A stretch of 32,000 bases of DNA from Candidatus Saccharimonadota bacterium (lineage in GTDB: Bacteria; Patescibacteriota; Saccharimonadia; Saccharimonadales; Saccharimonadaceae). Below are positions 2,114 to 17,603 of the stretch, one piece after another. The stretch lies in NCBI GenBank assembly GCA_002421785.1, contig DIRZ01000003.1:90001-122000 (forward strand). The letters run 5' to 3'. Position 1 is the first letter of the stretch, and every line of letters starts with the position of its first letter. The notes beneath the pieces are model-generated. The model was not told the DNA's origin and searched no databases. It saw only the letters and a program-made list of their open reading frames with translations. A program made the translations under genes and the position numbers.

Positions 2114-2653
2114 ATGAGCAGTGCGCCTATGTACGCGGCATCAAGGGCCAGATCAATCAATAGTACTACACGGAACCCTATGGAAATAGAAAGAAAATAT
2201 CTCATTGCAACCTTACCCCCTCTCGCGGGAGTGCTTTCAAATAACATACTCCAAGGCTATCTGGCTATCGATGATACTCACGAAGTCCGCCTCAGGCAAA
2301 TAGGACCTGACTATATACTGACAGTGAAAGTAGGCACCGGTTTAGTCAGGCAGGAGCATGAAACGGTAATATCCAAACAGCAGTTTAGCTTGTTGTGGCC
2401 TGCAGTAAACGATAGGTCAGTGAGTAAGGTACGCTACTACTTACCGGATGATATATCTGTTGATATATACGAAGGCCCACTAGCTGGGCTTACCGTTGCC
2501 GAAATTGAGTTTGATACTGTGCGTGCAAGCGATAGTTACATACCTCCTCACTGGTTTGGCCCGGAAGTCACTTCTGACCTCAGGTTCAAGAACCGGTCAT
2601 TGGCCTCAGCAGGCACAATCCCTAGCATCGATCAAGATATATCAAAAGAATAG
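2114..2653 (+). CDS. CYTH-domain protein (triphosphate tunnel metalloenzyme / class IV adenylate cyclase-like)
   Basis: MEIERKYLI matches the N-terminal ExExK signature of CYTH domains, and a later LTVAEIEF strand is also present. The domain begins at Met23 (nt 2180), so the true start could be 2114 or 2180. Neither start has a Shine-Dalgarno. Confidence 0.8.
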   Translation: MSSAPMYAASRARSINSTTRNPMEIERKYLIATLPPLAGVLSNNILQGYLAIDDTHEVRLRQIGPDYILTVKVGTGLVRQEHETVISKQQFSLLWPAVNDRSVSKVRYYLPDDISVDIYEGPLAGLTVAEIEFDTVRASDSYIPPHWFGPEVTSDLRFKNRSLASAGTIPSIDQDISKE

Positions 2654-3861
2654 TGCACTTTGCTGAATTTTTCTATCATCATCACGACACTCGCCCGTAC
2701 ATCCTCGCCATGGATCGCACGAGATAGTATATCGGCTAGCTTATCCATGTCTTCCTGCTGCGCTCCCCGGCGCGTGATTTCTTGTACGCCTAGGCGAATA
2801 AAGGCCCCTTGGTCATACATTTCGTCGAAGGCAACGGCAATATGATTTGAAAAAAAGTACTTTGCTATGTCTTCGGTCGACCCATGAGCGGACGTCATGA
2901 GGTGGACTTGGTGGGTATACGTCCATTCTTTGTCATCGGAACGCCGACATACGAGGCCGCGCTTGGTTAGGCCATCAGCTAAGGTGCGGGCATTCTCTAT
3001 AATCTGGTGTGCGTACTGCTCACCAAAAGACAACATTTCTTGGACAGAAATACATAGACCGATTGTATGGTCGAGGTGTGTTGACGAGTAATAACCATGC
3101 GCTTGGTTGTCTACATGGCTAAATATACCCTGGCTTTTACAGAGTATAATACCCTTATGAGTCCCCGGGAGTGTTTTATGCGTGTTTGCACTAATGACAT
3201 CAGCACCACAATCAAGTGGATTGGGGAAAGTGCCGCCGAGTATTAAACCAAAAACATGACTAGCGTCAAAAACGATTCGATTGTTTGGCCCGACCGCTTG
3301 GCGAAGACGCGCGATGTCAAACGGGATGAGGCTGTATGACATATCGATATATAGACAGATCGGGCGGTCAATACGGGAAATTTGGGTCGCAAATGCGTCA
3401 TAGTCGATGTCGAGTGTTCTAGTGTCCATCGGTAAAAGCCTAGATTCTCTCCCGGCATTCTTAATTATTCCAATCGTAGCGAAGTGACCGCCGTAACTGG
3501 GGTCGAGGCTGTATACAACGTCACCTATCTGCGTTAACGAAAACACCGATATCATCATGGCATGGAGCCCAGAAAGTGGCGCGAAGATTGCGCCGTACGC
3601 GTGTAGCCGTTCGCTTAGCTGGCGCTGGGTGGTGTCAACGACGTGATTGATTCCATTTTTTGCAAGCGATGTGAACCCATGAAACAAGGTGAAATCATTG
3701 TTCTCATGTGCCGGGCCAAAGTTATAGCGAGATGCGATATCGCTCATATTAAAGCGTTTAGCAGACTCAGAAACAACATTTTCGTTTGGGGTTAAGTGAA
3801 GATACTTATCGTTAGCTTCAATATCTGCAGTAATTTCGTGAACAATAGTGTCATAGTTCAT
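2632..3861 (-). CDS. Serine hydroxymethyltransferase-fold PLP-dependent enzyme (divergent SHMT-like)
   Basis: HLTPNENVVSESAKRF resembles the SHMT N-terminal L.LI.SEN..S motif. FAPLSGLHAMM resembles VQPHSGSQAN. ISANTHKTLPGTHKG resembles TTTTHKTLRGPRGG and retains the PLP lysine. The protein is too divergent to call a housekeeping glyA. Confidence 0.7.
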   Translation of the reverse strand: MNYDTIVHEITADIEANDKYLHLTPNENVVSESAKRFNMSDIASRYNFGPAHENNDFTLFHGFTSLAKNGINHVVDTTQRQLSERLHAYGAIFAPLSGLHAMMISVFSLTQIGDVVYSLDPSYGGHFATIGIIKNAGRESRLLPMDTRTLDIDYDAFATQISRIDRPICLYIDMSYSLIPFDIARLRQAVGPNNRIVFDASHVFGLILGGTFPNPLDCGADVISANTHKTLPGTHKGIILCKSQGIFSHVDNQAHGYYSSTHLDHTIGLCISVQEMLSFGEQYAHQIIENARTLADGLTKRGLVCRRSDDKEWTYTHQVHLMTSAHGSTEDIAKYFFSNHIAVAFDEMYDQGAFIRLGVQEITRRGAQQEDMDKLADILSRAIHGEDVRASVVMMIEKFSKVHYSFDIS

Positions 3862-3875
3862 ATACAGGCCTATCG

Positions 3876-4451
3876 CTATTGAGCGTATGCGATTTTAATA
3901 TAGTGCTCAATAAGGGCGTTGTCGCGGCGCTGCATGAATGACTTATCATAGGTATCTGCTTTGTAAGAGTTTATCAGCTTTAGCGCATGAGCCGGCGTAT
4001 CTGCCCATACCAGGTGGGAACCATCTTCCAGCGGCTTACCGAGGTGCGTATCATCAATGTCGCCAGTATAGCAGTACGATATTTGGATCAGCTTCCAGTC
4101 AGAGCGGTATTCAAGTGTGAGGCCAAGGGGCTTCAGCTTAATACTCGTTGCGTCTACGCCGACTTCTTCTGCAATCTCACGGACAACACCAGTCATGAAG
4201 CTCTCGCCATCTGACTCTGTTAGTGTGTACTGCAGCCCACCGCCAGGTATTTTATTGACACCTTCTGAATCTAAACTCTGGAGCGCAATCCGACCAGATG
4301 ATGGATCGACAAGGATACAGCGCGCAGCCAAGCGTATTGTCCAGTCAGACAAATTCATTTTATATGGAGCGTCATTACTGACCACAAGCGACTCACTTGT
4401 TAGGTCGTGTATTGTTGCAATGTGGGGTAGTATTTGTTCAATTTCTGTCAT
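3876..4451 (-). CDS. Nudix hydrolase
   Basis: The Nudix box is recognisable with an insertion: GGGLQYTLTESDGESFMTGVVREIAEEVGV (G..E..REhxEExGh). I place the start at ATG 4451: AGGAG lies 8 nt upstream and the upstream gene's stop is 1 nt away. The tracked start at 4556 would overlap that gene by about 100 nt. Confidence 0.75.
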   Translation of the reverse strand: MTEIEQILPHIATIHDLTSESLVVSNDAPYKMNLSDWTIRLAARCILVDPSSGRIALQSLDSEGVNKIPGGGLQYTLTESDGESFMTGVVREIAEEVGVDATSIKLKPLGLTLEYRSDWKLIQISYCYTGDIDDTHLGKPLEDGSHLVWADTPAHALKLINSYKADTYDKSFMQRRDNALIEHYIKIAYAQ

Positions 4452-4452
4452 G

Positions 4453-5565
4453 TTAGTTACTCCTAATTCTATTATAGTTTTCGGGAAGTGTCCATAAATC
4501 GCCACCATACGTGTTCCACGGACTACTGGATAGTCGCCTACCCTGTGCGCCGGCAAGTTGCTCTACGATCCCGCGCAGTGTCGCGTTTGATTTTTCACGA
4601 CCACCAAACGAAAGGAATGATTCTCGCGGGGAATACCGCTGCCTATGGTCCATAATGTCGTGATACGCTTCGGCAATGCCCTCTGGTGTGCGCTCGCAAA
4701 ACTTAGACGTAAGCCCGTCCTGCATGAATCGTTCCATACCTCCATGAGTAGGTAAAGCAACAATCATAGGCTTGTCGCATGCAAGCATTTCTGTCGCAAA
4801 CCGATTAACCGCTTCTGTTTCCTCGGATAAATAGATACCGGTGTTGCTTTTGTGCATAAACCGATCGCGAATTTGAACTTTGGTTAACGGCCCCAGAACA
4901 GTACTACCATCAGGGTTTACATGATCCCCAGTGGTGCTAAAGTCATCGGCATCGTATATAGTGACGTTGCCAAGCAAAGCAGCTGCACCCATTACCATTT
5001 TCCGGTATTGCACACTATCCGCATGTTTACGTTCAGAGGCCATCAGCCATCCGTAAATCATGATACTGATTTCTGGGTGCGCCTCAGCGACTTCAAGTAG
5101 CAGCTCCGTCTTTTTGGTCGGGAACCACTTAGCTATGTAAAGAATGTCCGACTCAGGTTGCTGAGGCTCAGAGCTGGGCGAAAATATATCTGGATCGACG
5201 AATAGTCCATCAGCCAACGCAAGCGAGTGGGGGACATTACGAGCGGCACCGTTTAAGTACTCATGTTCACCGGATTTATTAGAAAATATATTGCAATCGG
5301 TACGCGTAACATCGACTGGCACCGTGTCGCTTTGCGTTGTTGATACCACTAACCAGCGCTCCCGGAACGAAGGGTCGACATGCTCCATGTAGTCGACAAA
5401 ATCATTTGCCACGTAGTCGCCTACCAGTACAGCGCCCATACCGCCATCCGTATCTGGCTCGAGCAGAGTAAACACGGGTAGTGCACCTCCCTTTTCGAAG
5501 TTGGTTGCAAAGCGCGAAAAGGGCATACGCTCCTCGCTACTTACTGTTGCTTCATGCGTTTTCAT
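4453..5565 (-). CDS. GT-B fold glycosyltransferase-like protein (GT4/GT1-like C-terminal domain)
   Basis: ILYIAKWFPTKKTELLLEVAEAHPEISIMIYGW and EAVNRFATEMLACDKPMIVALPTHGGMERFMQDGLTSKF resemble the GT4 patterns (i.fvGR..p.KG...ll.a; E.fg...lEAmA.G.PVia...gG..E.v.dg.tG). GAGGA lies 7-8 nt upstream of the ATG. The N-terminal half is not recognisable. Confidence 0.5.
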   Translation of the reverse strand: MKTHEATVSSEERMPFSRFATNFEKGGALPVFTLLEPDTDGGMGAVLVGDYVANDFVDYMEHVDPSFRERWLVVSTTQSDTVPVDVTRTDCNIFSNKSGEHEYLNGAARNVPHSLALADGLFVDPDIFSPSSEPQQPESDILYIAKWFPTKKTELLLEVAEAHPEISIMIYGWLMASERKHADSVQYRKMVMGAAALLGNVTIYDADDFSTTGDHVNPDGSTVLGPLTKVQIRDRFMHKSNTGIYLSEETEAVNRFATEMLACDKPMIVALPTHGGMERFMQDGLTSKFCERTPEGIAEAYHDIMDHRQRYSPRESFLSFGGREKSNATLRGIVEQLAGAQGRRLSSSPWNTYGGDLWTLPENYNRIRSN

Positions 5566-6283
5566 GGTTTCGTCCTCTGTTTTCTATCAACACCTTCACG
5601 GCCTGTTCGATCTTGCGTCGTTTTGTTGCTGGTAATAGTAGATTTATTTCGTCGTTATTCTGAGATTCTGTGGCATCCGCCCCAAGCAATGCCTTGAGCT
5701 CTGTAGCGTTTAACCAGTCTGGCATTACCGTATCCTGCAGTTCGCCATCAATAACCATCAACGAATCCTTAGGGAGTAATTTTTTGTACTGTGCTTCGTA
5801 ATGCATCGTGGCGTCCCAATTCATCAATTCTTGATTTCGTGTTCCGCGCGCAAGCCTTTGCATAAGAACGCGGGGCGATGATAGGCTAAATCGCACGAAC
5901 CCATAGTGCGCATCGGGCAACTGCAAAAAATCATTAAATATTTGGCGACTAATTCGCAGACCTTTTTCATATTCGCTGGTTTCAATCATGCCATTGGCAT
6001 ACCTGAGCGAGTAAAAAATAAGCGATGATAACGGCGTGAACCGATCGGCGTAGACACGACCGTTTGGCGGGGCTATCGACTGCAAGCGCGCATTTTCCAT
6101 AACTGTAAAAAAGTAACTACAATACGCCATACTTACCGCATCGACTGGAGCGTCCGGAAAATTCATATCTCCACCTAAAAACTCACTCGATTCGGCAATG
6201 CATAAGGAATGCTCGCGCTGCTGATTCAAGTAGGTTGTTTTACCGGAGAATGCAGGTCCTTCGAGAAAAAGTATCTGTTTCAT
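5552..6283 (-). CDS. P-loop kinase-like protein (deoxynucleoside/nucleotide kinase fold)
   Basis: Walker A LEGPAFSGKTT is at the N-terminus, followed by YADRFTPLSSLIF, which is like the (D/E)R(S/F)...F motif of dNK/TMK-fold kinases. Its ATG overlaps the upstream stop (ATGA). Confidence 0.55.
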   Translation of the reverse strand: MKQILFLEGPAFSGKTTYLNQQREHSLCIAESSEFLGGDMNFPDAPVDAVSMAYCSYFFTVMENARLQSIAPPNGRVYADRFTPLSSLIFYSLRYANGMIETSEYEKGLRISRQIFNDFLQLPDAHYGFVRFSLSSPRVLMQRLARGTRNQELMNWDATMHYEAQYKKLLPKDSLMVIDGELQDTVMPDWLNATELKALLGADATESQNNDEINLLLPATKRRKIEQAVKVLIENRGRNHENA

Positions 6284-7611
6284 CTCTTAATCCTATAAAG
6301 CGTAATGCCGGCCAAGATACCACTTGCACTGATCTTTTTGGGTGGCTGCGTGTACGCGTACTCATGCAGCGTGTTGATATGTGACGCCACATCGCCAGTA
6401 TCGATCGACGTTAGGGCATCTTGCCCTCCCGTTGAAGATGCTTTTCCGTCATCCAAAAGCACGATATCGAGAAGCGCATGCCGGGCTGCAGCTTCCACGA
6501 TGGATGCATAGCCATTAAACTGGTACGCAAAATCGCCAATGATTGCCATAGCGCGAGAACCGGCATAGAGCGATGCGCCCGCGGCAATTGATAGACTACT
6601 GCCCATACAAAGGCAACTATCAATGAGCCCAAATGAATCACTCGTATACTTCCCTTCATCGCCGATCACAATTGCGTAGTCTTTTTTATTAATCGCTCGT
6701 AATACATCATCCCAGTCATGCATTACCGGAGCTATGCCCTCATGTATGAATGAGGAGTCGATTGCTGGCTCGAGGTTAGACCGAAGGGTTCTTTCGGCAT
6801 AGTTCGATCCACGTTCGCGTATCGTCAAGTGGGGCTTCTCAGAAAAAAGCGTGCAAACGGCCGCAGGGATTGGATAGTGCTGAATGGTTAAAGCATGCTG
6901 AGTTGGTTGTGCTGCACCAAATACAATGCCGTCAACGTCCTGAACTGAAGACGCTGTATACTGTTGTGCCACATACGCACGAATTACTATTTGCTTTTTT
7001 TCAAATCGTTCAACACGGTCCGACCATGCACCGATTGATTTTTGACGTAGCTCAAGGCGAGGCATCACCGCAGGCGGCGTAGCATATACTGTTCCTAGGT
7101 CGTCAGTATCAACGGGAGAGCTACTTTGTAGTAGATCGTAGGTTATGCGAAGAATAATCGGAACGTCAAGTTGCTCAGAGAGTTCAAACACATGAGCAGT
7201 CATGTTGACGGCGGACTGTATTGTTGCAGGTTCAAGAACTAGTGTGTGGATATAATCATTAAGTACTCGTGAATCAATGATTTCCGGCGATGAGTGTGCG
7301 ACAGTATCTTCAAGTACGACGATGACCATTCCGCCCCCAACCCCATTGATTACCGCATGGTGAATAGAGTCGAGTGTTGCTGCCAGTCCAACACCTTTAA
7401 AAATTGTCACGCTCCGACCACCTACTAAGGATGCGCCGTATGCAAACTCAAATGCATTACGCTCATTGAATGATGGCTTGACGTTCTTTACTATCGTGTG
7501 AGCAAGTAGGTCGCCTCTCATTCCAGGGTAATAGTACACAACCTCTGCGCCTGCGGATGCGAGGCTAGTGCCGATATGCCGAAGATTCATGGCGACCGTG
7601 TCAAGTTTCAT
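6280..7611 (-). CDS. ThDP-dependent enzyme related to indolepyruvate:ferredoxin oxidoreductase alpha subunit (IorA-like), lacking the ferredoxin domain
   Basis: The N-terminal half aligns by eye with the IorA/PFOR pyrimidine-binding domain (YYPGM...NERNAFEFAYGASLVGGRSV..FKGVGLAATLDS...GGGMVIVVLEDTVAHSSPEIIDSR). The C-terminal half has a ThDP-binding motif (IIGDFAYQFNG...LLDDGKASSTGGQ). There is no CxxCxxCxxxCP cluster. Confidence 0.7.
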   Translation of the reverse strand: MKLDTVAMNLRHIGTSLASAGAEVVYYYPGMRGDLLAHTIVKNVKPSFNERNAFEFAYGASLVGGRSVTIFKGVGLAATLDSIHHAVINGVGGGMVIVVLEDTVAHSSPEIIDSRVLNDYIHTLVLEPATIQSAVNMTAHVFELSEQLDVPIILRITYDLLQSSSPVDTDDLGTVYATPPAVMPRLELRQKSIGAWSDRVERFEKKQIVIRAYVAQQYTASSVQDVDGIVFGAAQPTQHALTIQHYPIPAAVCTLFSEKPHLTIRERGSNYAERTLRSNLEPAIDSSFIHEGIAPVMHDWDDVLRAINKKDYAIVIGDEGKYTSDSFGLIDSCLCMGSSLSIAAGASLYAGSRAMAIIGDFAYQFNGYASIVEAAARHALLDIVLLDDGKASSTGGQDALTSIDTGDVASHINTLHEYAYTQPPKKISASGILAGITLYRIKR

Positions 7612-7612
7612 T

Positions 7613-9112
7613 TTAGATGCTCCGTTCTATAGTAGGAGTTAAGTGCAATCTCTCAGATACTAACGACTCGTAGAGCGCAGCCATCATTTTGACAGGGACA
7701 TCGTAGGTAGTGATGCTGTTGCGAACGATGACGGTATCGCGGGTGTGCTTGCCTCCGCGTATATCATGGCACCCTTCCAGGAACTCGTTTATCATCACAT
7801 GCTTCGCTAGCTCATTTGATAGTTTCGAGGATTGGCTTGCGTACATGTCGTCGATGTCAACCGAACTGTACACCTGGAGGGCTGGCTCATTTTCACCAAA
7901 CATTTCACTGTTTCGAAAGACATAGATATCAAAATGATTCTTGCCACCAACAGAGTAGCTCTCGTCCCCGGTATCAGTATCGTGCTCGTCAACTGCCTGG
8001 TAATTATGGATCTGTATACACTGGAATGGGCCTTGTTCGATGACGTAGGACTGGTGTTTGACGCGACCGTTTCCTTTATATAGATCTGTCGCTGGTACTC
8101 GCCAGCTCCGCTTGCTAAAGCTACTGTGCAACAGGTTGACGCCAATCAATGCCGTAGCAAATCCCTCTCGCTTCATAGTTATATTTGCCATGATATCTAT
8201 TTCGCCAAAATTTTTCATTGACTTTTGATAGTGCTCTAGGTTGTGCAGCGTGGTGTATTTTCCGAAATAGTCACGGTAATCATCGGGCGTTATGGAAGAA
8301 ACATAGCCATTCGGATAGATTGCGCTGGCATAGGCTACTAATGTATCGGGCATCTTCACTTTAGGGGTGCCGTGCTCGAGGAACTGCCACGCGATGTCGA
8401 GCACGTGGAAACCGCTATGGGAAAGTTTGCCGTAGCCAGTATTGTAGGGGTGCATTGTCTGATGCATTATTTCATCTGGAAAGATCCATACACCGTCACT
8501 ATGAAATGCTTGTATCGATGTGACCGGCATATTAAACGTGTTGGCCACCTCGCTCAACTTTTCAAATACAAAGTTGTACCCTGACTCGTATCGTCGTTGG
8601 GTGCTGAGGCAAAAAAGCGATCGACTTTCGTGATATACGTCCATGAGATCTCTGTAGTCTTGCTCTATAAGCTGAAAGGCTCTGGAATTGCTGACGGCAC
8701 CATCTCGAGTTGACACCGGTTTGTCCATGAGAATATGAAGATCATGAGCTAATGCCCACTTTGCATAATCGACATGGTGGGTGGGGTCTGTGGAGATAAT
8801 GACTGCAGTAAAGTCATATGCCTTAAGTAGCTTGCGAGAAAGCGCAATATCGTTAAATGGCTGCTTGCACTCTGTTGGGTTAAGATAATAAGTGTCGACC
8901 CGCTCTGTATAGTCGCGTTCAAGCAAATATTGTGCAATGCTTTGCGCGCTTTGAAAAACGTCCAGGATAACAACCTTGCAGTGCGCAATTTGCGAATTAT
9001 TTATTAGCTCAGGTATATAGATGCGTCGTGCATGGTGACCGGCACCGATGACAAGGACAGCCGGCTGCCTAGTCTTGTCTTGCTTTTTCGATAGATGATT
9101 CGCTATACTCAT
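7613..9112 (-). CDS. Gfo/Idh/MocA-family NAD(P)-dependent oxidoreductase
   Basis: N-terminal Rossmann motif VLVIGAGHHARRIYIPEL, plus the family signature IISTDPTHHVDYAKWALAHDLHILMDKPV (I.TP...H......AL.AGKHVL.EKP). It has a long, non-canonical C-terminal domain. Confidence 0.75.
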   Translation of the reverse strand: MSIANHLSKKQDKTRQPAVLVIGAGHHARRIYIPELINNSQIAHCKVVILDVFQSAQSIAQYLLERDYTERVDTYYLNPTECKQPFNDIALSRKLLKAYDFTAVIISTDPTHHVDYAKWALAHDLHILMDKPVSTRDGAVSNSRAFQLIEQDYRDLMDVYHESRSLFCLSTQRRYESGYNFVFEKLSEVANTFNMPVTSIQAFHSDGVWIFPDEIMHQTMHPYNTGYGKLSHSGFHVLDIAWQFLEHGTPKVKMPDTLVAYASAIYPNGYVSSITPDDYRDYFGKYTTLHNLEHYQKSMKNFGEIDIMANITMKREGFATALIGVNLLHSSFSKRSWRVPATDLYKGNGRVKHQSYVIEQGPFQCIQIHNYQAVDEHDTDTGDESYSVGGKNHFDIYVFRNSEMFGENEPALQVYSSVDIDDMYASQSSKLSNELAKHVMINEFLEGCHDIRGGKHTRDTVIVRNSITTYDVPVKMMAALYESLVSERLHLTPTIERSI

Positions 9113-9132
9113 AAAGATAAAGATACACTCTA

Positions 9133-9161
9133 TTGATTCATTATCGTTTTTATGTTACTAT
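9133..9161 (+). promoter_or_regulatory. Candidate promoter TTGATT, 17 nt spacer, TACTAT in the AT-rich divergent control region of the island
   Basis: TTGATT at 9133-9138, a 17 nt spacer, and TACTAT at 9156-9161. It lies inside the 93 nt AT-rich gap between divergent genes starting at 9112 (-) and 9206 (+). Confidence 0.45.
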
Positions 9162-9205
9162 TCTTTTATGATATCACATAACTTAATTTATGTCAATGTC
9201 GTTAT

Positions 9206-9913
9206 ATGATTGAGTACCCCCGTCATTCGCTCTATCTTGAGGGTACCGATGCGAGCGGTAAGGATTCTGTCGCACGGGAACTTCAGCTACTACTGCCAGA
9301 TGTAGGCGTAGCAGCGGGATATTTTTATCCAGACTATCGCGCAAGAGCGCAGGAGTGGCAGCGTCGGTGTCCAGAAGCTGGTAGGGATGTCATCTTTCTT
9401 GCAAGCGTTGTTGGTGACTTGTTGGCACTCAAGGAGAGTGATCCTCGTTTGAGCCCCCATATTCAAGTGTCGCATGGCGTGATAAGGGGCGCCGCCTATC
9501 AAGATGCCTTTGATCTGCCGACGGCAAACCTTTTTAATAAGGTGTCCGGCCTTCTTCCGCACAATATTCAACCCATCGCGCTCTCGGCTCAACTAAAGAC
9601 GATCCAGCAGCGTGTACTGAACAATCCCGAGTCCACAGAGTTCGATTTTCTTGTTTTCAATGAACCGGCACGGGTTCAACGAATTATCGACGGAATTGCC
9701 CAGCGTAGTGTTGCTCTCGGTGGTCGTGTGATTGATACAAGCAACCTGACGCCTAACGAAGTTGCGCATACGATACTCGAAGAGCCTGACACATATATAC
9801 CACGCCGAAGTGCCATCGATGCCCAGGAGATTCTCGACGAAATCGCCGGCAGGTACCCAATGAGCATGCCGATTATTCAGGAAATAAGGGAAGGAATGGT
9901 TTACGATGTCTAA
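9206..9913 (+). CDS. Thymidylate-kinase-like P-loop kinase
   Basis: The P-loop YLEGTDASGKDSV resembles the TMK motif EG.DG.GK.T, and VIRGAAYQD resembles TMK DR...S..AYQ. The Walker A is also similar to PPK2 (EG.DAAGKG), so the substrate is uncertain. Confidence 0.55.
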   Translation: MIEYPRHSLYLEGTDASGKDSVARELQLLLPDVGVAAGYFYPDYRARAQEWQRRCPEAGRDVIFLASVVGDLLALKESDPRLSPHIQVSHGVIRGAAYQDAFDLPTANLFNKVSGLLPHNIQPIALSAQLKTIQQRVLNNPESTEFDFLVFNEPARVQRIIDGIAQRSVALGGRVIDTSNLTPNEVAHTILEEPDTYIPRRSAIDAQEILDEIAGRYPMSMPIIQEIREGMVYDV

Positions 9914-10625
9914 TAGATCTTTATACATTGTTTGGGGAGTCACCGGAGGGCTTGGCGAAGGAGTATCACTCGCACTCGCCAACGCTGGTCATGATGTGAT
10001 TGGGTACGCGCGGGACGTCAACAAAGTGAATAGTAGTATTCTTGATGCCGAGCATATCGAAATACGCAGTATGGTTATTTCTGAATCGTTTTATCGTCAA
10101 GAATGTGCTTATCTTGAGGGCCGCGGCCTAACAATAGCTGGAATCGTGGACTGCGTAGGGTCGACGCAAACGCCTAGCGATGCGACACTGACCCAGCGCT
10201 TTAAGGATATCATGACACCAAATCTATTCCATCCCTACGCAAGCACCCTAATATTCGCGCCAGTCATGGCGGAAAATGCCAGTATCGTGCTCGTAAGCTC
10301 TATTCGCGCCCTCACTGGCACGGACAATCAGAATATCGAATATGCATTTGCAAAGGCCGCGGTAGAGAATCTTGCGAGATCACTCGTTCATCATCTCAAA
10401 GCCACAAAGGTTCGGTGTAATGTCGTGCGTCCCACGCCAATTCTTGGCACCCAGATGAGCCGAGCCTGGAGTCCTCAGATTATCGAAGAGCTCGAATCAA
10501 AAGCGCTCTACGGCACGCTCCTGCGCGTTGATGATATCGTTCCTGTTGTCGTGTTTCTTCTATCCCCTAGCTCCCTTGCTATCAATGGCACTGTCATTGA
10601 TACTAGCGGTAGCTTCGGCTTATAG
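9906..10625 (+). CDS. Short-chain dehydrogenase/reductase (SDR)
   Basis: Cofactor motif VWGVTGGLGEGV (TGxxxGxG) and catalytic YAFAKAAVENL (YxxxK). It overlaps the upstream gene by 8 nt. Confidence 0.85.
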   Translation: MSNRSLYIVWGVTGGLGEGVSLALANAGHDVIGYARDVNKVNSSILDAEHIEIRSMVISESFYRQECAYLEGRGLTIAGIVDCVGSTQTPSDATLTQRFKDIMTPNLFHPYASTLIFAPVMAENASIVLVSSIRALTGTDNQNIEYAFAKAAVENLARSLVHHLKATKVRCNVVRPTPILGTQMSRAWSPQIIEELESKALYGTLLRVDDIVPVVVFLLSPSSLAINGTVIDTSGSFGL

Positions 10626-10753: not shown

Positions 10754-12844
10754 CTACTTCGAGCGCTTTTCGATGATTTCCTGTGCCACGTTTGGTGGTA
10801 CTTCTTCGTAATGCGCAAGCTCCATCGTGCTTGCAGCGCGGCCTTGGCTCATACTGCGGATATCGCCGGTATAACCAAACATGTTTGCGAGTGGGACAAT
10901 CGCTTTCACAAGCTTCGCGCCACCCATCAGGTCTTCCATGGCATCGATACGTCCACGGCGGCTGTTAAGGTCACCGATGATGTCGCCCATGAACTCTTCT
11001 GGCGTAGTTACTTCAACATGCATAACAGGTTCGAGGATAATTGGCGTTGCACGCTTCACACCTTCACGCGCCGCAATACTACCAGCCAGTTTAAAGGCCA
11101 GTTCGCTTGAGTCAACATCGTGATAGCTACCGTCGTACAGTGTCGCTTTGACGTCGACTACTGGATAACCGGCAATCACACCGCCATACAATGTTTCAAC
11201 GATACCCTGCTCGACAGGCTTGCGGTATTCTTGTGGCACCACACCACCCTTAATCATGTCGACGAATTCAAAGCCCTTGCCCACTTCGTTCGGCTCGAAG
11301 CGTACCCATACGTCACCGTACTGGCCACGACCGCCGGATTGCTTGGCGTGTTTACCCTGAACTTCAGACGTGCCCTTAATGGTTTCACGGAAGGCAACCT
11401 GTGGCTCACCGACGTTCGCTTCGACGTTAAATTCACGCTTCATGCGGTCAATGAGGATTTCGAGGTGAAGCTCGCCCATACCAGACATAATCGTCTGACC
11501 GGTTTCGTCATCGGTGTGAACGCGGAAGGTTGGGTCTTCTTCGGCAAGTCGTTGCAGGGCGATACCCATTTTTTCCTGGTCAGCCTTCGTTTTAGGCTCA
11601 ACGGCGATAGAAACTGGAGGATCTGGGAATGTGATCGCTTCAAGCGCCATTGGGTGCGCAGGGTCTGTTAGTGTGTGCCCCGTGAATGTGCCCTTTAGCC
11701 CCACGACAGCAGCAATGTCGCCCGCACCAACTGAGTCGATATCTTCACGCTTGTCGGCGTGCATACGCACGATACGGCCAACGCGCTCTTTTTCGCCCGT
11801 TGTTGTGTTCAAAACATAGCTACCGGCGGTGAGTTTACCTGAGTACACACGCACAAAGATAAGCTTACCGACAAATGGGTCGGTCGCAAGCTTAAAGGCA
11901 AGCGCGGCCATTGGTTCTTTGTCATCTGGCTTGCGACTTACTTCATCGCCAGTTTTAGGGTTTTTGCCCCAAATGGCGTCGATGTCTAGTGGGCTTGGCA
12001 GGTAGTCAGCCATAAGGTCGAGAACCTTTTCGACAATCACGCCGCGGCCATCGCCACCAGTTACAAGGTAAAAGTCACCAGCAAGAACTCGCTTGCGAAG
12101 CGCAGCCTTTAGTTCGTCAATTGTGATCGAATCTTCGCCCTCATCGAAGAACTTCATCATCAGTTCTTCATCAGCTTCCACTGCGTTTTCAACCAGCAGG
12201 CTGCGTGCGTTTTTAGCTTTTTCGAGCATGTCTGCAGGAATTTCGCCAACGACAAGTTCGTGATCGGTGTAGTCAGTGTAGGTGTAGGCCTTCATATCAA
12301 TTAGGTCAACGACACCATTGATATCCTTTTCGAAGCCAATTGGCAGGTGAATTGGGAACGCCTGTTTGCTGAGGCGAGTACGGATACTTTCGAGGCTCTT
12401 GTAGAAGTCACCCCCGGTCTGGTTGATCTTGTTAACAAAACAAATACGTGGAACGCCGTACTTGTTGGCTTGGCGCCATACGGTTTCAGACTGAGCTTCA
12501 ACGCCCATCTTGCCGTCAAACACAGTGACAGCACCGTCAAGCACGCGAAGACTTCGCTCAACTTCGGCCGTGAAGTCAATGTGCCCCGGGGTGTCGATGA
12601 TGTTGATTTTGCAGCCCTTCCAGAAACAGGTTACGGCAGCGGAAGTAATGGTGATACCACGTTCTTTTTCTTGTGCCATCCAGTCAGTTGTTGCGCCGTC
12701 ACCGTCACCTCGAACTTCGCCGATCTTGTGATTGATACCAGTACGGTAGAGGATTCCTTCTGTCGTTGTTGTTTTACCGGCGTCGATGTGTGCGATAATA
12801 CCGACGTTACGGAAGTCCTTTAGCGGGACATTTGTTACTGCCAT
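10754..12844 (-). CDS. fusA: Translation elongation factor G
   Basis: 696 aa with [29 protein letters not shown]-type G motifs and full EF-G domain architecture. AGGAG lies 4 nt upstream of the ATG. Confidence 0.98.
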
Positions 12845-12969: not shown

Positions 12970-13548
12970 CTATTCGCCTGGCTGGAGCCGTTTCGATATC
13001 TCAACGGTTGGGTCGGATATGGAAACGACAATATATGGTGAGCTGATGTCATGTGGGTCGAACCCATCAATCTCAAGTCGCGGATCGGTCAAGATAAGCG
13101 CTATATCGTACTCATCGTCGTTGATGCCTCTTCCCCCAACCATCGCATCAAAAGACGGCATCGGTGCGATAGCAACGTGGTTGAATGTGCCGACGACCCA
13201 CTCACCTTCGACAACGTTCTCGCAGGCGATTCCTGACTCAGTAACATAGAAGGTAAATGCACCCTCGCCGACAACAACAGTATCACCTGAAGTCAACTCA
13301 GAAAGCCTCGGTACATCCGCTCGGTTGAGCATCACCTCGATGAATTGGTAGTCCTCGGGCCGAAGAGGAACTCCTGGCTCTGCCTCAAGAGAAGCCTTCA
13401 CGTGGTCATTAAACGCGCCACGAAGTAGCTTCATGTCATCGCCCAGCGACACGGCAATATGTTCACCCCGGGTATCAATCCCAAGTTCTTCTGAAAGACC
13501 GCCGACTATTTCAAAAAACGAATTGTCATCTGGTATGTGCTCACGCAT
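12970..13548 (-). CDS. Hypothetical acidic protein D (192 aa) of the rpsG-fusA cassette
   Basis: Long ORF on the same strand as its neighbours. ATG 13548 lies 1 nt after the stop of gene C (TAAtATG). The tracked TTG start at 13569 would overlap C. It shares an N-terminal peptide and module motifs with B and C. No known family was recognised. Confidence 0.75.
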   Translation of the reverse strand: MREHIPDDNSFFEIVGGLSEELGIDTRGEHIAVSLGDDMKLLRGAFNDHVKASLEAEPGVPLRPEDYQFIEVMLNRADVPRLSELTSGDTVVVGEGAFTFYVTESGIACENVVEGEWVVGTFNHVAIAPMPSFDAMVGGRGINDDEYDIALILTDPRLEIDGFDPHDISSPYIVVSISDPTVEISKRLQPGE

Positions 13549-13549
13549 A

Positions 13550-15781
13550 TTAAAACGCCATCTCCTCAAGCGTGCTTAGTGGTACGACATATCGTGCAAC
13601 GACATCGTTTCGCTCCGGTGTAGGCACACGCATGACAAGGGCAATCTCGCTGGTCTTTAGGAACGGGTGCTCAGTGACGACGCCATCGAGAGTCGCAAGG
13701 ATCTCCTGGCCGAGGATGTGCTTAGCGGAATCATCAATAAATGGCCCCGCGATTCGGAGTGTGCGTCCTGCGCCCAAAATCGCCTCGAGCGCATCAGCTG
13801 CCACGTCCATAGCACTGGGATTATCGTGAAATGCAAGGGCGATATCACGAAGCCCCTCGACACCATCAAACTCAGTCATCTCTGTCTGAGGCTCGCTGTC
13901 GATTGCTCCCGCAAGATACTCGAGATTCTTTTGTAGCATTTGTCGCGAAGACTGCGCGATATCAAGTTTCGCGGTTCGGGCGAGCGCTTCGCTACGACGG
14001 GCGTCATAATCAAGACTCGGGAGAGAGTATCCCGCAGGAAGTCCGAGGTCAACAACGAACCGTCGCGCCGCGTTTATCGTCACCATAGATGCGTTAGTGT
14101 CAGGATCTGTAATCGTAATCGTATTATTCCCATGCCCGAGATCGATAAACTCAAGATACGCACGGATCACGTGTTGTTCATCATCCTCACCATAAGAGCG
14201 TGTTTGAACATTAGCCTCAGCGAGGATTCCCTTTGCACTGCTAAATACATCTGGGGAGCTTACGCCAAATCCCTTTACTTGTATATCAAGCGTCTGTGAC
14301 TCTTGATCGATCACACGACTAAAGGTAGCCTCGGGAATCCTTAGCGCTGGGCCAATGACCTCGATAACAGGGTTCATGTCCGTTTGCCACCGTTGAAAGA
14401 ACGCTGAAATTCGATAATTGATCATCTCGTAGTCGTCTGCAATCGCCGCCTTGCTCGGATACGGTCGCTCGGCCTCACTTGAGGCATATTGGCGAACTAT
14501 TTCATGTAGTCCATGCAACTCAGCGAGGAACTGTCGCTGCCTCTCTTTTTCATCCTCGGGTATATCCTGTTCACCATCTCTGTCACTCGCCTCATCTGCG
14601 TGCTCGACGCTGGTCATTGAAGCTGCGTCTATCACTGCCTCACCTAGCCGTTGTTCAAGTGGTCGCACTCCAAAATTGCTGTCGAACTGCTCATTTGGCT
14701 GAATAATCGTATCTTCATCAAATGGATACGCACTCGTCTCCGGACGGTTAGCCGTCAGCCGTGTGAGGCTATCGATAGGGATATATATTGGGGTACGTCC
14801 ACCTTGCGCCTCTGGTACGAGGTACCACGTCTCGAGCGTGGGACGGTAAGTGATGAGCGTTTGACCTTCTGCTGTATCAGGCGTCGGAAAAAGACGTACA
14901 TTGCTAATGAGCAGCTCACGGAGCGTTCCATCATATTCTTTGGGCACTTTCGCATATGTCATCGTACGTCCATAGATGACACCTCGAACGACTGCGTCGT
15001 AAGTTGCATTGTCAAATGCGAGTCGATCGGTGATATACGTTTCAATCAGGTCGAGCACTTCATCGTCACCCATTGTCGTGTCAGCTTTTGACACATCAAA
15101 TGTCACGCTAAAGTCATCGAGAAGTTGACGGATAAGCTCAGGATCACGGCAGCCATCTGGCAACGCCTGAACTGCAGCGAATACTTCGGGGAAATTGGCG
15201 CGCACAAACTCCTCAGCACCTTCACGAGAGGGTTGGTGTGGCTCCATATACTCGATGTCGTCGGGGCGACTCGTGAACCACACTTGTCCATCCTCGTAGT
15301 CTTCGTCGAGACCATATTGCATCACGACGCGGTACATTGATCCATACTCACCCATTGGAACTCTCTCGACGTCAAAGCCTTTGACGATCGCCCGGAACCC
15401 TGCCGCATCAAAATATTCTCCGAGAAGATCTTCTTTGCGCTCGCCGATTCCAGGAAATGCGCCTTCATGGGCGTCGTCAACAACATTCTCATCGAGCGCG
15501 TATTCAGTTGGTCGGAGTCGTCCGGTTACCTTGATTGCTTCGTCGCGAAATCCAAGCATATCCCAATCACCGTTGAGATTGAGGAGTACTTCTTGGATGG
15601 TGTCTTCTGACGGGTTAGTCGCAAAATTCAGTGCGTCTTCGGCGCTTTTTGCATCGTGTATAAGACGGAGGATGCCCGGGTCAATCGTGTCACGAAGACT
15701 CGGTTCGGTCTCCCATGTGTTTTTGATGAGCGCATCAAATGCATCGTCATCGTTAGAGTGTGGCTGTGACTCTCGTATCAT
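13550..15781 (-). CDS. Hypothetical acidic multi-module protein C (743 aa) of the rpsG-fusA cassette
   Basis: An uninterrupted 2.2 kb ORF; the only competing ORFs are short antisense ones. It has no TM or signal sequence, is rich in D/E, and shows repeated sequence patterns shared with B and D. No known family was recognised. Confidence 0.8.
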   Translation of the reverse strand: MIRESQPHSNDDDAFDALIKNTWETEPSLRDTIDPGILRLIHDAKSAEDALNFATNPSEDTIQEVLLNLNGDWDMLGFRDEAIKVTGRLRPTEYALDENVVDDAHEGAFPGIGERKEDLLGEYFDAAGFRAIVKGFDVERVPMGEYGSMYRVVMQYGLDEDYEDGQVWFTSRPDDIEYMEPHQPSREGAEEFVRANFPEVFAAVQALPDGCRDPELIRQLLDDFSVTFDVSKADTTMGDDEVLDLIETYITDRLAFDNATYDAVVRGVIYGRTMTYAKVPKEYDGTLRELLISNVRLFPTPDTAEGQTLITYRPTLETWYLVPEAQGGRTPIYIPIDSLTRLTANRPETSAYPFDEDTIIQPNEQFDSNFGVRPLEQRLGEAVIDAASMTSVEHADEASDRDGEQDIPEDEKERQRQFLAELHGLHEIVRQYASSEAERPYPSKAAIADDYEMINYRISAFFQRWQTDMNPVIEVIGPALRIPEATFSRVIDQESQTLDIQVKGFGVSSPDVFSSAKGILAEANVQTRSYGEDDEQHVIRAYLEFIDLGHGNNTITITDPDTNASMVTINAARRFVVDLGLPAGYSLPSLDYDARRSEALARTAKLDIAQSSRQMLQKNLEYLAGAIDSEPQTEMTEFDGVEGLRDIALAFHDNPSAMDVAADALEAILGAGRTLRIAGPFIDDSAKHILGQEILATLDGVVTEHPFLKTSEIALVMRVPTPERNDVVARYVVPLSTLEEMAF

Positions 15782-15787
15782 GAACTA

Positions 15788-15821
15788 ATTAAATAGAGAT
15801 GCGCCCCTGTTTGCAAGCATA
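15788..15821 (-). promoter_or_regulatory. Promoter-like element with conserved 11-mer upstream of gene C (TATGCTTGCAA; TTGCAA, 17 nt, TTTAAT, 6 nt, ATG)
   Basis: The minus strand reads TAG-cgctTATGCTTGCAAacaggggcgcatctctaTTTAATtagttcATG. There is no Shine-Dalgarno. The same 11-mer occurs upstream of gene B. Confidence 0.5.
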
Positions 15822-15825
15822 AGCG

Positions 15826-16815
15826 CTAGAATTGTGGTGGCGTCGGTGTATCATATCGCGCTGAACTCATCCAGGCGATTGATGTACAGGGAATGATAAG
15901 TTCTCGCTCAGAGCCATTTGGTTCATACGCAGTCGCTTCGATAAACGGTACACAGCGGTGCGTGCCCTTCAGTTCCTGCGCGCGAATATCAGACGGACGC
16001 AATTCGACGTCTTTGACCCTCATCGTCCGTGTGTACGGATAGCGCAAAACCACAGGAATACCATCGCCGTTATCTTTGACGGAGATACACTCGCCCGCAA
16101 CTGAGATATGGTAATTGACATGCGGATCGATTTCCGCGCGTGAACGAAGATATTGTGCCGCATCGCGGACGTGCTCAAGTTGTTCTTCGTCACTCAAGTT
16201 TGCTTCAAAGACAAACTCACCGAAATCTTTGATAATCTGATCGTCGCGACGGCTGGTAAATGCAAGTTCATCAATAGTATTTGCATCCTCCGGGTAATAA
16301 TACGCGAATCGACGCTCTCGTAGCTCGGGGGACGGAAATGGTAGCTCGATACCTGCGAGTTCCTCAAGGGGGAGAACAATAGGCATCCGAGTGCCATCAC
16401 CTTTTCCGGCGTCTATTTCCACAAGATGCGATATTTTCGGGAAATGATCATTTGATTGCTCGGTCGAATCAGTGAAAAATATGAAACCGCGAGAAATTGC
16501 TTCTTGATCAACGTACGTCGAGGACTGCATTTCGGGTAATCCTGGGACTACCGCCCAACCACGGCCGCTGACTGTCACGGGCATATTCATATATCGCCAC
16601 CTCGCATCGAGCTGCTGTACATGAGCCTGTCGGATCGAAAGAGGGTCGATCTCGGTGTCGGTGAGCATCGATGTTGCTACTATCTCTTGACGAGAGAGTG
16701 CTTCACTGTGTATTTCTTCTAGATATGGATCACCAAGCTGTGGCTCTAGTCCATCGGTCATCTCGCGAAATATATCGTCAAAGTCTGGATGCTTACTGCT
16801 TGGTATCTCGCTCAT
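15826..16815 (-). CDS. Hypothetical acidic two-module protein B (329 aa) of the rpsG-fusA cassette
   Basis: Long ORF on the same strand. Two internally similar halves are visible: NMPVTVSG...GDGTRMPIVLPLEEL and NYHISVAG...NGSERELIIPCTSI. The N-terminal peptide is similar to that of D. No known family was recognised. Confidence 0.8.
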   Translation of the reverse strand: MSEIPSSKHPDFDDIFREMTDGLEPQLGDPYLEEIHSEALSRQEIVATSMLTDTEIDPLSIRQAHVQQLDARWRYMNMPVTVSGRGWAVVPGLPEMQSSTYVDQEAISRGFIFFTDSTEQSNDHFPKISHLVEIDAGKGDGTRMPIVLPLEELAGIELPFPSPELRERRFAYYYPEDANTIDELAFTSRRDDQIIKDFGEFVFEANLSDEEQLEHVRDAAQYLRSRAEIDPHVNYHISVAGECISVKDNGDGIPVVLRYPYTRTMRVKDVELRPSDIRAQELKGTHRCVPFIEATAYEPNGSERELIIPCTSIAWMSSARYDTPTPPQF

Positions 16816-16823
16816 AGATTACT

Positions 16824-16858
16824 ATTTAACCCCACCGTGGCTTCTCGTTGCAAGCATA
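16824..16858 (-). promoter_or_regulatory. Promoter-like element with conserved 11-mer upstream of gene B (TATGCTTGCAA; TTGCAA, 18 nt, TTAAAT, 8 nt, ATG)
   Basis: The minus strand reads TGA-tactaccTATGCTTGCAAcgagaagccacggtggggTTAAATagtaatctATG. There is no Shine-Dalgarno. Confidence 0.5.
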
Positions 16859-16865
16859 GGTAGTA

Positions 16866-17603
16866 TCAGGCGGCTGTTCTGCTATCTATCTCACGTGTCG
16901 GAAAATGCGTCGTTAAATCCGTCATCTGATAGTGCATGATCGGCTGGAGCCACCTGGCAACATCGGTGGCACTATCAAGATCACCCGTATACTCAAGCCT
17001 TAGTGCCTCAAGCGCATGCATCCCAACAACTGCTCTTGTCGACTTTCGGTACGCTCGTCTTAATCGCGCTTCGTCATGCCGATCGGTTATCTCCACAAGT
17101 CGCTCTGCATCGCGTGCAAGTCGCGTCAGCGCTCGATACCCTCTCACGTAACGCTCCATTGGCTCAATACGAGGTACAGTTGTTTCATGGGTGACTTCGT
17201 GGTGTAGGTGGTGAAGCTGTGGTGGTAATATCACCATCTGTGTCCTGAGCTCACGAAATACGAGGGGGATATGAGCGAGCGCCCCCGCATGTTCAAAGTG
17301 GGCGGGATCGTACGCATCCCGTGGCCAATGGACATGATGTCGGTTTGGTGTCGCAGGGTGATTTGATCGTGTCGTCACCACTGGCCATTCGTAGGAATCA
17401 TCGATGAAGCGTTCGACTACCTTTTCCGCAGTCTGACGCGCGAGAACAAACCCCCGGTCATCCGTCACAGGGGCAATACGTCGAAGATGACGTGGATTTA
17501 TTTTCCATACATCAAGTGGAGGCAGATGACCCTCCGGTCCAAACTGACGACTATGCATGTATGTATCGTAACGGATTGTCATCGAATTCGCTACAAAAAA
17601 CAT
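16866..17603 (-). CDS. Hypothetical His-rich protein A (245 aa, or 238 aa from Met8) of the rpsG-fusA cassette
   Basis: ORF on the same strand, 47 nt downstream of rpsG. It contains NRHHVHWPRDAY...FEH...AHIP...PPQLHHLHHEVTHE, which includes an HExxH string. The protein is basic and Arg-rich, unlike B, C and D. The start is ambiguous (ATG 17603 or ATG 17582). Confidence 0.7.
   Translation of the reverse strand: MFFVANSMTIRYDTYMHSRQFGPEGHLPPLDVWKINPRHLRRIAPVTDDRGFVLARQTAEKVVERFIDDSYEWPVVTTRSNHPATPNRHHVHWPRDAYDPAHFEHAGALAHIPLVFRELRTQMVILPPQLHHLHHEVTHETTVPRIEPMERYVRGYRALTRLARDAERLVEITDRHDEARLRRAYRKSTRAVVGMHALEALRLEYTGDLDSATDVARWLQPIMHYQMTDLTTHFPTREIDSRTAA

Follow-up and report, generated by a model that had tools for sequence, protein, structure and literature searches.

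An eight-gene enzyme cassette conserved in rearranged forms among candidate phyla radiation bacteria, with a possible role in nucleoside modification

Conserved linkage of eight enzyme families

A 32,000-nt stretch of a Candidatus Saccharimonadota genome (GenBank contig DIRZ01000003.1, positions 90,001–122,000; hereafter the window, to which all coordinates refer unless a locus number precedes them) carries at 2632–10625 a compact cassette of eight enzyme genes, which recurs in several gene orders among bacteria of the candidate phyla radiation (CPR). The cassette is a real, conserved and uncharacterised pathway. We tentatively read it as a pathway of specialised metabolism making a modified, sugar-decorated nucleoside or nucleotide, a reading whose chances we put somewhat short of even and in which we infer the substrates, the order of steps and the product.

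The genes form two divergent units on either side of a 93-nt AT-rich intergenic region (9113–9205, 22.6% GC). The first gene of the six-gene minus-strand operon encodes a Gfo/Idh/MocA-type NAD(P) dehydrogenase (7613–9112, 499 aa; Gfo in the following); it is followed by genes for a compact IorA-like thiamine diphosphate (ThDP) enzyme (6280–7611, 443 aa), a deoxynucleoside kinase (dNK)-like P-loop kinase (5552–6283, 243 aa), a GT-B-fold, GT4-like retaining glycosyltransferase (GT; 4453–5565, 370 aa), a Nudix hydrolase (3876–4451, 191 aa) and a pyridoxal phosphate (PLP) enzyme of the serine hydroxymethyltransferase (SHMT) fold (2632–3861, 409 aa). The junctions are, in this order, a 1-nt gap, a 4-nt overlap, a 14-nt overlap, a 1-nt gap and a 14-nt gap. 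The two plus-strand genes, which overlap by 8 nt, encode a P-loop protein resembling nucleoside monophosphate (NMP) kinases and thymidylate kinase (TMK) (9206–9913, 235 aa) and a classical short-chain dehydrogenase/reductase (SDR; 9906–10625, 239 aa). An earlier note, made from the letters of the window alone, had described the same two units and spacer; all of its coordinates, gaps and overlaps were reproduced, and its eight family assignments were upheld by profile and structure searches, that of the dNK-like kinase less firmly. The ATG start of the Nudix gene at 4451 is backed by the public gene call and by orthologs; in the mechanical list of open reading frames (ORFs) the frame reaches a TTG at 4556.

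All eight families were found together in at least ten independent CPR loci, in three gene orders. Type 1, the order of the window, was seen in L003, L004 and L009, which carry the same eight genes at 30–63% identity between unrelated flanks; in L004 an ABC transporter directly adjoins the cassette. Type 2 (L014, L016 and L017–L020, including a Candidatus Shapirobacteria metagenome-assembled genome) has the order PLP gene–Gfo–ThDP–SDR–dNK–NMP kinase–GT–Nudix and is preceded by a divergent gene resembling nucleoside 2-deoxyribosyltransferase, a weak match below the Pfam cut-off (E = 1.7e-4). One or two further Nudix genes often follow (two to three in all), sometimes together with a Ham1p-type inosine triphosphatase (ITPase) gene, which stands directly after the cassette in L014 and L020; L014 has a methyltransferase gene as well. 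Type 3 (L012 and L013) runs GT–Nudix–PLP gene–unknown–NifS-like cysteine desulfurase–Gfo–ThDP–SDR–dNK–NMP kinase. The segment between the PLP and Gfo genes of L012 (13231–15124) encodes a 243-aa protein and a desulfurase of the NifS/IscS/DndA kind (TIGR03402, 450 bits), and the latter hints at a sulfur-containing variant of the product.

Recurrence of the eight families on many unrelated contigs rules out chance co-location, and linkage that outlasts rearrangement is strong evidence for one function. The genes are thus not scattered housekeeping genes, the outcome that would have spoken against the island described in the earlier note, since the families stay linked at 30–60% identity in differing flanks and in three orders.

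In its close type 1 form the cassette is rare (10 ThDP clusters at >43% identity and 14 GT clusters among 5.8 billion proteins), which suggests an accessory trait. Cluster sizes at 90% identity are unreliable for presence or absence and were not used. A first scan of the genome collection with the ThDP alignment found nothing; the metagenome scan yielded one extra fragment (L005), the contig of L003 once more (L006) and two further ThDP genes (L007 and L008), which were discarded after annotation as unrelated and phosphonopyruvate-decarboxylase-like. In the plasmid collection the GT protein was unmatched, and the ThDP enzyme matched N-terminal domains of IorA only.

Core and accessory modules

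The set is modular: on comparative gene content, its conserved core is the Gfo–ThDP–PLP triad, and the dNK-like, NMP-kinase-like, GT4, Nudix and SDR genes make up an accessory module. The single eight-gene island of the earlier note therefore stands as a co-conserved set, refined to a three-enzyme core plus a nucleoside-handling module, and not as an indivisible unit. Core and accessory modules are linked by overlapping stop and start codons (translational coupling).

A neighbour-joining tree of Gfo proteins, combined with four context look-ups, grouped the family by gene neighbourhood. Clade 1 is small, of type 1, and holds the window protein. Clade 2 is large and comprises types 2 and 3 plus a minimal operon of Gfo, ThDP, SHMT-like and alanine racemase genes (L024 10001–15257 and L025 10001–15336, the latter from Parcubacteria RAAC4_OD1_1, 693,530 bp), set between housekeeping flanks of tRNA-synthetase and ribosomal genes in genomes of the Parcubacteria type. 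The racemase of these operons passes the NCBIfam alr equivalog cut-off, and its presence suggests an amino-acid (alanine or D-amino-acid) link of the core triad, outside the nucleoside model. Clade 3 (L022 8198–13950 and L023 8292–13345, one source being Candidatus Dormibacteraeota) is accompanied by a class IV (BCAT/D-AAT-like) aminotransferase, a WelO5-like 2-oxoglutarate oxygenase, an S51 peptidase and AlaRS-like catalytic domains (plus, in L022, a YqcI/YcgG protein); it looks like a separate aminoacyl-type specialised pathway.

A decayed remnant was also observed, in a genome of 41% GC (L010/L011, 8418–12003), where only a split Gfo gene and the ThDP and dNK-like genes are left, beside ABC-transporter genes.

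Enzymes of the core

The Rossmann domain of the Gfo protein scores above the Pfam cut-off (PF01408, 30.2 bits against 24), and the sequence has the motifs GAGHHAR (23–29), DKP (130–132, of the EKP type) and SHSGFHVLD (231–239; SHSGFHxLD in the family). Sequence search alone found no PDB relative. An AlphaFold2 (AF2) model (pLDDT 89.9, built on 42 homologs) was nearest in Foldseek to glucuronide-3-dehydrogenase, GFOR, DgpA, scyllo-inositol dehydrogenase and GenD2 (E ~ 1e-15), the fold match to GFOR, DgpA and inositol dehydrogenases being full-length. The family comprises more than 120 full-length clusters at 40–45% identity. Gfo and ThDP genes are always neighbours, and in one 1007-aa protein (P0169) the two are fused, with matches to the Gfo protein of the window at E = 2e-77 and to the ThDP enzyme at 5e-33.

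Other fusions of this dehydrogenase occur in cultured bacteria. Plasmid pBEMB20-1 of Bacillus tropicus encodes a 593-aa protein that joins a Gfo-like region to a Nudix domain, whose nearest relatives are the (d)NTP diphosphatases NudG, NudI and MutT. In Streptomyces sp. NBC_01462 Gfo is fused with an APH-type phosphotransferase into an 851-aa protein, whereas NBC_01136 and Kitasatospora encode the two parts separately, with a Nudix gene and an ABC transporter close by. Fusion to Nudix and phosphotransferase partners indicates a phosphorylated, nucleotide-type substrate for the family. The occurrence of the family on plasmids of cultured Streptomyces and Bacillus makes it experimentally tractable.

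The surroundings of these plasmid genes are themselves of note. In pBEMB20-1 (L026 9995–19491) the Gfo–Nudix fusion is followed by genes for an Ldh-like dehydrogenase, a histidine phosphatase, a 986-aa A–C protein resembling non-ribosomal peptide synthetases (NRPS), an MFS transporter and a phosphopantetheinyl transferase, apparently an uncharacterised instance of puromycin-like logic in a culturable Bacillus. A cluster conserved on Streptomyces and Kitasatospora plasmids (L027, L028 and L029) encodes a CoA-ester lyase, a MaoC dehydratase, GNAT and APH proteins, Ldh_2 and LLM oxidoreductases, the Gfo-like protein, an NAGPA-like protein and a PIG-L deacetylase; Gfo and APH are fused in its NBC_01462 version, and the Kitasatospora version adds the Nudix gene and the ABC transporter.

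The ThDP enzyme shares homologous N-terminal PYR and C-terminal PP domains with IorA (Pfam PF01855 and PF02775, respectively). Its match to the IorA model TIGR03336 is partial (E = 3.6e-35, residues 18–171, the PYR domain) and reaches 121 bits against a cut-off of 651. Two motifs carry residues that are invariant in the family alignment (A1): NERNAFE (49–55), in which E50 or E55 is the cofactor-activating glutamate, and GDF-x26-DD (359–388), which supplies the Mg-ThDP motif G359-D360...D387-D388; the ThDP part of P0169 has the classical GDA...NGG motif. Unlike IorA, the window protein has 443 aa instead of ~600, lacks a ferredoxin domain and has three cysteines in all, of which C333 is the sole invariant one. 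It also lacks an IorB partner, no iorB-like gene being present in any locus examined (the window and relatives including types 1–3). With three cysteines and no ferredoxin domain no Fe-S cluster can be bound, so that the enzyme cannot use ferredoxin; a ferredoxin-dependent 2-oxoacid oxidoreductase was thus ruled out, the missing beta subunit included. The earlier designation as an IorA-like ThDP enzyme holds for the domain homology, with the refinement that the enzyme cannot be a ferredoxin oxidoreductase.

Against the PDB, the ThDP family profile matched the beta subunit of phosphonopyruvate decarboxylase (E = 0.003) and the OFOR alpha subunit, and the nearest relatives of the PP domain are beta subunits of phosphonopyruvate and sulfopyruvate decarboxylases. 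With ~48 clusters in 1.84 billion representatives, the family forms a block of its own that precedes classical IorA in the representative library. From these sequence features the enzyme is best taken as a putative decarboxylase or carboligase of the non-oxidative kind.

The PLP enzyme matches the broad Pfam SHMT model (70 bits). Its best NCBIfam match is fluorothreonine transaldolase (TIGR04506) at 232 bits, below the cut-off of 650, the model spanning also a C-terminal aldolase-like domain that the window protein lacks; a true fluorothreonine transaldolase scores 1207 bits. In cultured organisms its best match is likewise the genuine Streptomyces cattleya fluorothreonine transaldolase (34% identity, with 98% of the query covered), followed by an SHMT-like gene on the S. 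clavuligerus megaplasmid. Four key residues, H126 (GGH), D199, K229 (THKT) and R356, are invariant in 11 family members and align with H131, D204, K234 and R366 of ObiH, which are the catalytic residues of that enzyme (PMC10495429). The profile of the 11 members scores 228 bits on the Methanocaldococcus jannaschii SHMT, 226 bits on ObiH and at most 140 bits on bacterial SHMTs. By these scores the enzyme is a separate lineage, equidistant from archaeal SHMT and L-threonine transaldolases.

A canonical GlyA is unsupported, though an SHMT function is possible. The SHMT model NF000586 gives 168 bits against a cut-off of 335, the N-terminal 103 aa alone have no PDB match, and after the KYAEG motif the folate-binding loop (GxRxYxGC) is replaced by 'RYxFGxG...DFxxFT'. 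For context, one study of Patescibacteria counts glyA in a small group of metabolic genes whose transfer was confined to Patescibacteria (PMC12455944).

These features of the core also bear on an alternative, namely that two modules of primary metabolism travel together. The triad would then serve amino-acid synthesis or interconversion, either by taking a hydroxy acid through a 2-oxo acid to an aldehyde and condensing this with glycine into a beta-hydroxy amino acid such as threonine or serine, or by supplying glycine, serine or alanine; the kinases, Nudix hydrolase and ITPase would serve nucleotide salvage and sanitation, which auxotrophic CPR cells require in any case. The racemase-containing operon amid tRNA-synthetase and ribosomal genes in L024 and RAAC4_OD1_1 fits such a role, as does the equal fit of the PLP profile to archaeal SHMT and ObiH. 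Few enzymes of amino-acid interconversion are listed for the RAAC candidate-phyla genomes, RAAC4 included; SHMT is one of them, and CPR bacteria lack de novo nucleotide synthesis (PMC3812714). Two separate modules would not, however, be expected to stay linked across Saccharibacteria, Microgenomates and other lineages in three orders and with translational coupling between them. Nor does this explanation account for the GT4 and SDR genes or for the fusion of the Gfo family to Nudix and kinase domains in unrelated cultured bacteria, and the rarity of close type 1 relatives is unexpected for an essential function. We regard it as unlikely.

Enzymes of the accessory module

The motifs of the dNK-like protein, GPAFSGKT (9–16), DRF (80–82) and the lid RLARGTR (143–149), are all invariant. 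The window protein has no Pfam match, and its L014 ortholog (31% identity) scores 36 bits against the Pfam dNK cut-off of 27. A PHROG thymidylate kinase was matched at E = 7e-5, and the family profile (A5) matched deoxyguanosine kinase 2jaq at E = 0.003 only. The NMP-kinase-like protein is also without a Pfam match; its family profile (A6) found cytidylate kinase 1q3t (E = 7e-5) and also adenylate kinase. In its Walker A motif, GTDASGKD, Asp replaces Ser/Thr, as it does in the majority of the family, and the L014 ortholog has the canonical EGVDCSGKTT.

Although the window GT protein lacks a Pfam match, relatives at 40–46% identity match PF00534, and its AF2 model (pLDDT 88.4) has a GT-B/GT4 fold, with MshA, sucrose-phosphate synthase, HepE and BshA found by Foldseek at E ~ 1e-10. 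Together with the fold, the EX7E motif (E251-x7-E259), invariant in 15 sequences, places it in GT4. It shares the GT-B fold, EX7E and solubility with GT4 enzymes of the MshA, BshA and sucrose-phosphate synthase type, and differs from them in being only 11–15% identical, with a TM-score of ~0.55. Several of the closest structures are enzymes whose acceptors are small and either phosphorylated or acidic.

The Nudix protein scores 25.6 bits with PF00293 (cut-off 21.1) and has an intact Nudix box (residues 70–99, with E83-x7-REIAEEVGV). The loop that follows the Gly is extended in the proteins of the window and of L009, those of L003 and L004 having the canonical form. Its gene adjoins the GT4 gene in all relatives. 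The SDR matches PF13561 (94 bits) and PF00106 (64 bits) and carries GVTGGLG (11–17; GxxGGxG) and YAFAK (146–150; YxxxK); its gene adjoins the ThDP gene in types 2 and 3.

The pairing of GT4 and Nudix genes raises the alternative of nucleoside diphosphate (NDP)-sugar tailoring for a surface glycoconjugate. The kinases would make or recycle the nucleotide carrier (e.g. dTDP from thymidine by way of dTMP); Gfo, ThDP and SDR enzymes would produce a keto sugar, convert it to a C-branched sugar and reduce it; and the PLP enzyme would decorate the sugar, which the GT4 would transfer to a cell-envelope acceptor under Nudix control of the NDP-sugar or NDP pool. Precedents exist in yersiniose biosynthesis, where a C-branched sugar is made and then reduced by YerE and YerF, and in colanic-acid clusters, where Gmm adjoins GT4 genes. 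The GT4 with its intact EX7E is present throughout and always has a Nudix gene beside it, Gfo, ThDP and SDR genes are contiguous in types 2 and 3, the nearest folds of Gfo are sugar 3-dehydrogenases, and CPR genomes are rich in glycosyltransferases (PMC3812714). The cassette nevertheless lacks a nucleotidyltransferase, a priming or membrane glycosyltransferase, a flippase and a polymerase, and none of its eight proteins has transmembrane segments. YerE belongs to a different ThDP family, several of the nearest GT4 folds use small-molecule acceptors, and sugar activation would not be expected to call for a deoxynucleoside kinase, ITPases or a nucleoside-deoxyribosyltransferase-like gene. On balance a glycoconjugate route appears improbable.

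Comparison with described pathways

No cluster, defence system or paper matching the eight-gene set was found in the literature. In PADLOC-DB none of the eight proteins was matched at E up to 0.1, and in PHROGs the matches of cassette proteins were generic (TMK, Nudix, SHMT-like and FabG). The opinion of the earlier note that no textbook pathway combines these enzymes therefore holds for the literature and for PADLOC. The superfamilies that make up the cassette are known and their combination is new; for three of the enzyme families no member has been characterised.

The kinases invite a further explanation, that the product is a modified (deoxy)nucleotide for hypermodification of the cell's own DNA or RNA, or a chain-terminating analogue for anti-phage defence by a viperin-like logic. 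The kinases would yield the di- or triphosphate of the analogue, and Nudix and ITPase enzymes would guard the host pools. Phage GT-B enzymes are known to glycosylate DNA, and the dNK-like and NMP-kinase-like pair, the several Nudix genes and the Ham1p gene around the cassette would suit such a scheme, as would the NifS/IscS/DndA-like desulfurase inside the L012 variant. Thymidylate-synthase-like, DNA-transglycosylase, sensor and effector genes are, however, absent from the cassette, and ThDP and SHMT-fold chemistry is without precedent among known base-modification pathways. A defence system was dropped on the PADLOC and PHROG results and because the GT alignment picked up nothing among viral contigs, and we consider the wider explanation very improbable.

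Other candidate routes were dropped for lack of their marker genes in every locus: pterin glycosides (GTP cyclohydrolase/PTPS), a thymidylate cycle (thymidylate synthase), a coenzyme-M-like route (ComA/B), PLP precursors (PdxA/J) and a deoxyribose route independent of ribonucleotide reductase (DERA).

Puromycin-type aminonucleoside pathways offer one point of comparison for the modified nucleoside that we favour. In these, Pur10 is a RifL-like, NAD-dependent ATP dehydrogenase and Pur7 a Nudix enzyme converting NTP to NMP (PMC11641026). The same pairing of a dehydrogenase with a Nudix enzyme, found in the puromycin, A201A, cystocin and 3'-amino-3'-deoxyguanosine pathways, is mirrored by the Bacillus Gfo–Nudix fusion, whose gene neighbours are likewise pur-like (a phosphatase, an amino-acid-activating enzyme and an MFS exporter). 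The cassette itself is no puromycin-type cluster: within 2632–10625 only the dehydrogenase-type and Nudix genes correspond, whereas a DegT-type aminotransferase (Pur4), a Pur3-type phosphatase, a Pur6-type ligase and methyltransferases are missing, and ThDP, SHMT-fold, GT4 and kinase genes are foreign to pur clusters. Gfo proteins of the window type also differ from Pur10 in their length of ~490 aa with a long C-terminal region.

A second point of comparison is obafluorin, for which it is proven that the ThDP decarboxylase ObaH feeds an aldehyde to the L-threonine transaldolase ObaG (PMC5490192). The cassette shares the combination of a ThDP enzyme with an SHMT-fold PLP enzyme that keeps the ObiH catalytic residues. 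It differs in that ObaH is of the phenylpyruvate-decarboxylase type and the window enzyme of a truncated IorA/PFOR type, and in lacking NRPS and aromatic-precursor genes. In LipK-type enzymes, for their part, the acceptor of the glycyl unit is a nucleoside aldehyde itself (PMC10495429); a LipK-like attachment would explain why the cassette needs no ligase. In contrast to LipK/AbmH systems, it has no LipL-type dioxygenase.

Proposed pathway

In the pathway that we propose, the Gfo-type dehydrogenase would oxidise a sugar hydroxyl of a phosphorylated, nucleotide-type substrate to a carbonyl, as Pur10 does on ATP. The ThDP enzyme, coupled to Gfo, might carry out non-oxidative C–C chemistry on or beside that carbonyl, either by decarboxylating a 2-oxo acid to an aldehyde (as ObaH) or by adding an acyl-anion unit in the manner of YerE. 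A glycyl unit donated by L-threonine or glycine could then be placed on the aldehyde by the PLP enzyme, giving a beta-hydroxy-alpha-amino-acid side chain as with ObaG/ObiH, LipK and fluorothreonine transaldolase. The dNK-like and NMP-kinase-like proteins would then phosphorylate the nucleoside scaffold stepwise, the SDR would reduce a remaining carbonyl, the GT4 would add a sugar from an NDP-sugar, and the Nudix hydrolase would trim the polyphosphate to a monophosphate, as Pur7 does.

The link to nucleotides or nucleosides, already proposed in the earlier note, is strengthened by the dNK-like and NMP-kinase-like assignments, by the deoxyribosyltransferase-like, Nudix and ITPase genes of the relatives and by the Gfo–Nudix fusion. 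Small-molecule acceptors of several of the nearest folds of the window GT4 are in keeping with the proposed pathway. Weighing against the proposed pathway, the window cassette contains no transporter, regulator, resistance gene or ligase, and all assignments are by remote homology (11–35% identity to characterised proteins). The structural neighbours of Gfo are generic sugar and cyclitol dehydrogenases, which do not single out a nucleotide substrate, most of the NMP-kinase-like proteins have the atypical GKD Walker A, and the PLP enzyme, by its profile as near archaeal SHMT as ObiH, could have a true SHMT role. The core triad moreover occurs without nucleoside enzymes and with alanine racemase, which an amino-acid or primary-metabolic role fits at least as well.

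In a stronger version of the proposal, Saccharibacteria and other CPR episymbionts would have here their first dedicated small-molecule pathway, one resembling those of nucleoside antibiotics and following an undescribed enzyme logic. It would combine a Pur10-like nucleotide dehydrogenase, an Fe-S-free IorA-derived ThDP enzyme physically coupled to it and a separate SHMT-fold aldolase or transaldolase into the synthesis of a glycosylated amino-acid nucleoside used on host or competitors. As a whole we hold this to be rather unlikely. CPR genomes of ~0.7–0.9 Mb are thought to make almost nothing, yet this one gives some 1% of its length to a coupled eight-enzyme pathway that several CPR lineages have kept in rearranged form. 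Should a nucleoside analogue indeed be the product, it would be a candidate for mediating interactions between episymbionts and their hosts or competitors, and a new scaffold from an untapped phylum. The analysis also defines three enzyme families without a characterised member: the Gfo-type dehydrogenase of ~490 aa, for which fusions to Nudix, kinase or ThDP partners recur; the Fe-S-free compact IorA-like ThDP enzyme; and the SHMT-fold lineage between archaeal SHMT and threonine transaldolases, which is of biocatalytic interest.

Genomic surroundings

The divergent spacer contains a promoter-like site on the minus strand (9196–9168, TTGACA-17-TATCAT with an upstream TG, i.e. extended) facing the six-gene operon. 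Such sites are no more frequent in the whole region than expected by chance, so that for this near-consensus match the position alone is suggestive of a promoter. Scans of the window for tRNAs and Rfam families gave neither, and no convincing transmembrane segment was seen in any of the eight cassette proteins.

The cassette is flanked by fusA (10754–12844) on one side and a GH13 amylase-like gene on the other; rpsG, rpsL, rpoBC, clpP, tig and several ORFs without a Pfam match lie at a greater distance. Six of the ORFs between fusA, rpsG/rpsL and rpoC (12970–17603 and 18794–20832; 199–743 aa) had no Pfam match at E up to 0.001. These housekeeping surroundings justify the description of the gene set as streamlined in the earlier note; the cassette of ~8 kb makes up roughly 1% of a genome of ~0.8 Mb. 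The window proteins are also encoded, exactly, on an 812,921-bp contig, and the same DNA is present in JGI metagenome 3300001592. Its ribosomal protein S12 is identical with the one from 'Candidatus Saccharibacteria bacterium 32-49-10', and 'Ca. Saccharibacteria bacterium 32-50-10' is a member of the RpoB cluster.

On the plus strand at 2114–2653 lies an ORF with a weak CYTH-like (triphosphate tunnel) match (Pfam E = 0.006), whose 3' end overlaps that of the convergent PLP gene by 22 nt. Being present in the closest relatives (L001 and L002) only, the ORF is probably outside the conserved set.

A possible accessory gene for a Ham1p/ITPase-type non-canonical NTP pyrophosphatase, incomplete at the window start, lies near the cassette at 14–517 on the plus strand (PF01725, 62 bits). 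It is the end of the first gene of a group situated 0.5–6 kb past the GH13 gene, to the left of the window start in the same genome (L001 13345–17999), which encodes the Ham1p ITPase, an AAA-type kinase, a PrnB-like protein (PF08933, 90 bits), a GHMP kinase, an S-adenosylmethionine-dependent methyltransferase and a Nudix protein. The PrnB-like enzyme is unexpected in a Saccharibacterium, and the Nudix protein shares 38–40% identity with the additional Nudix proteins encoded in type 2 loci.

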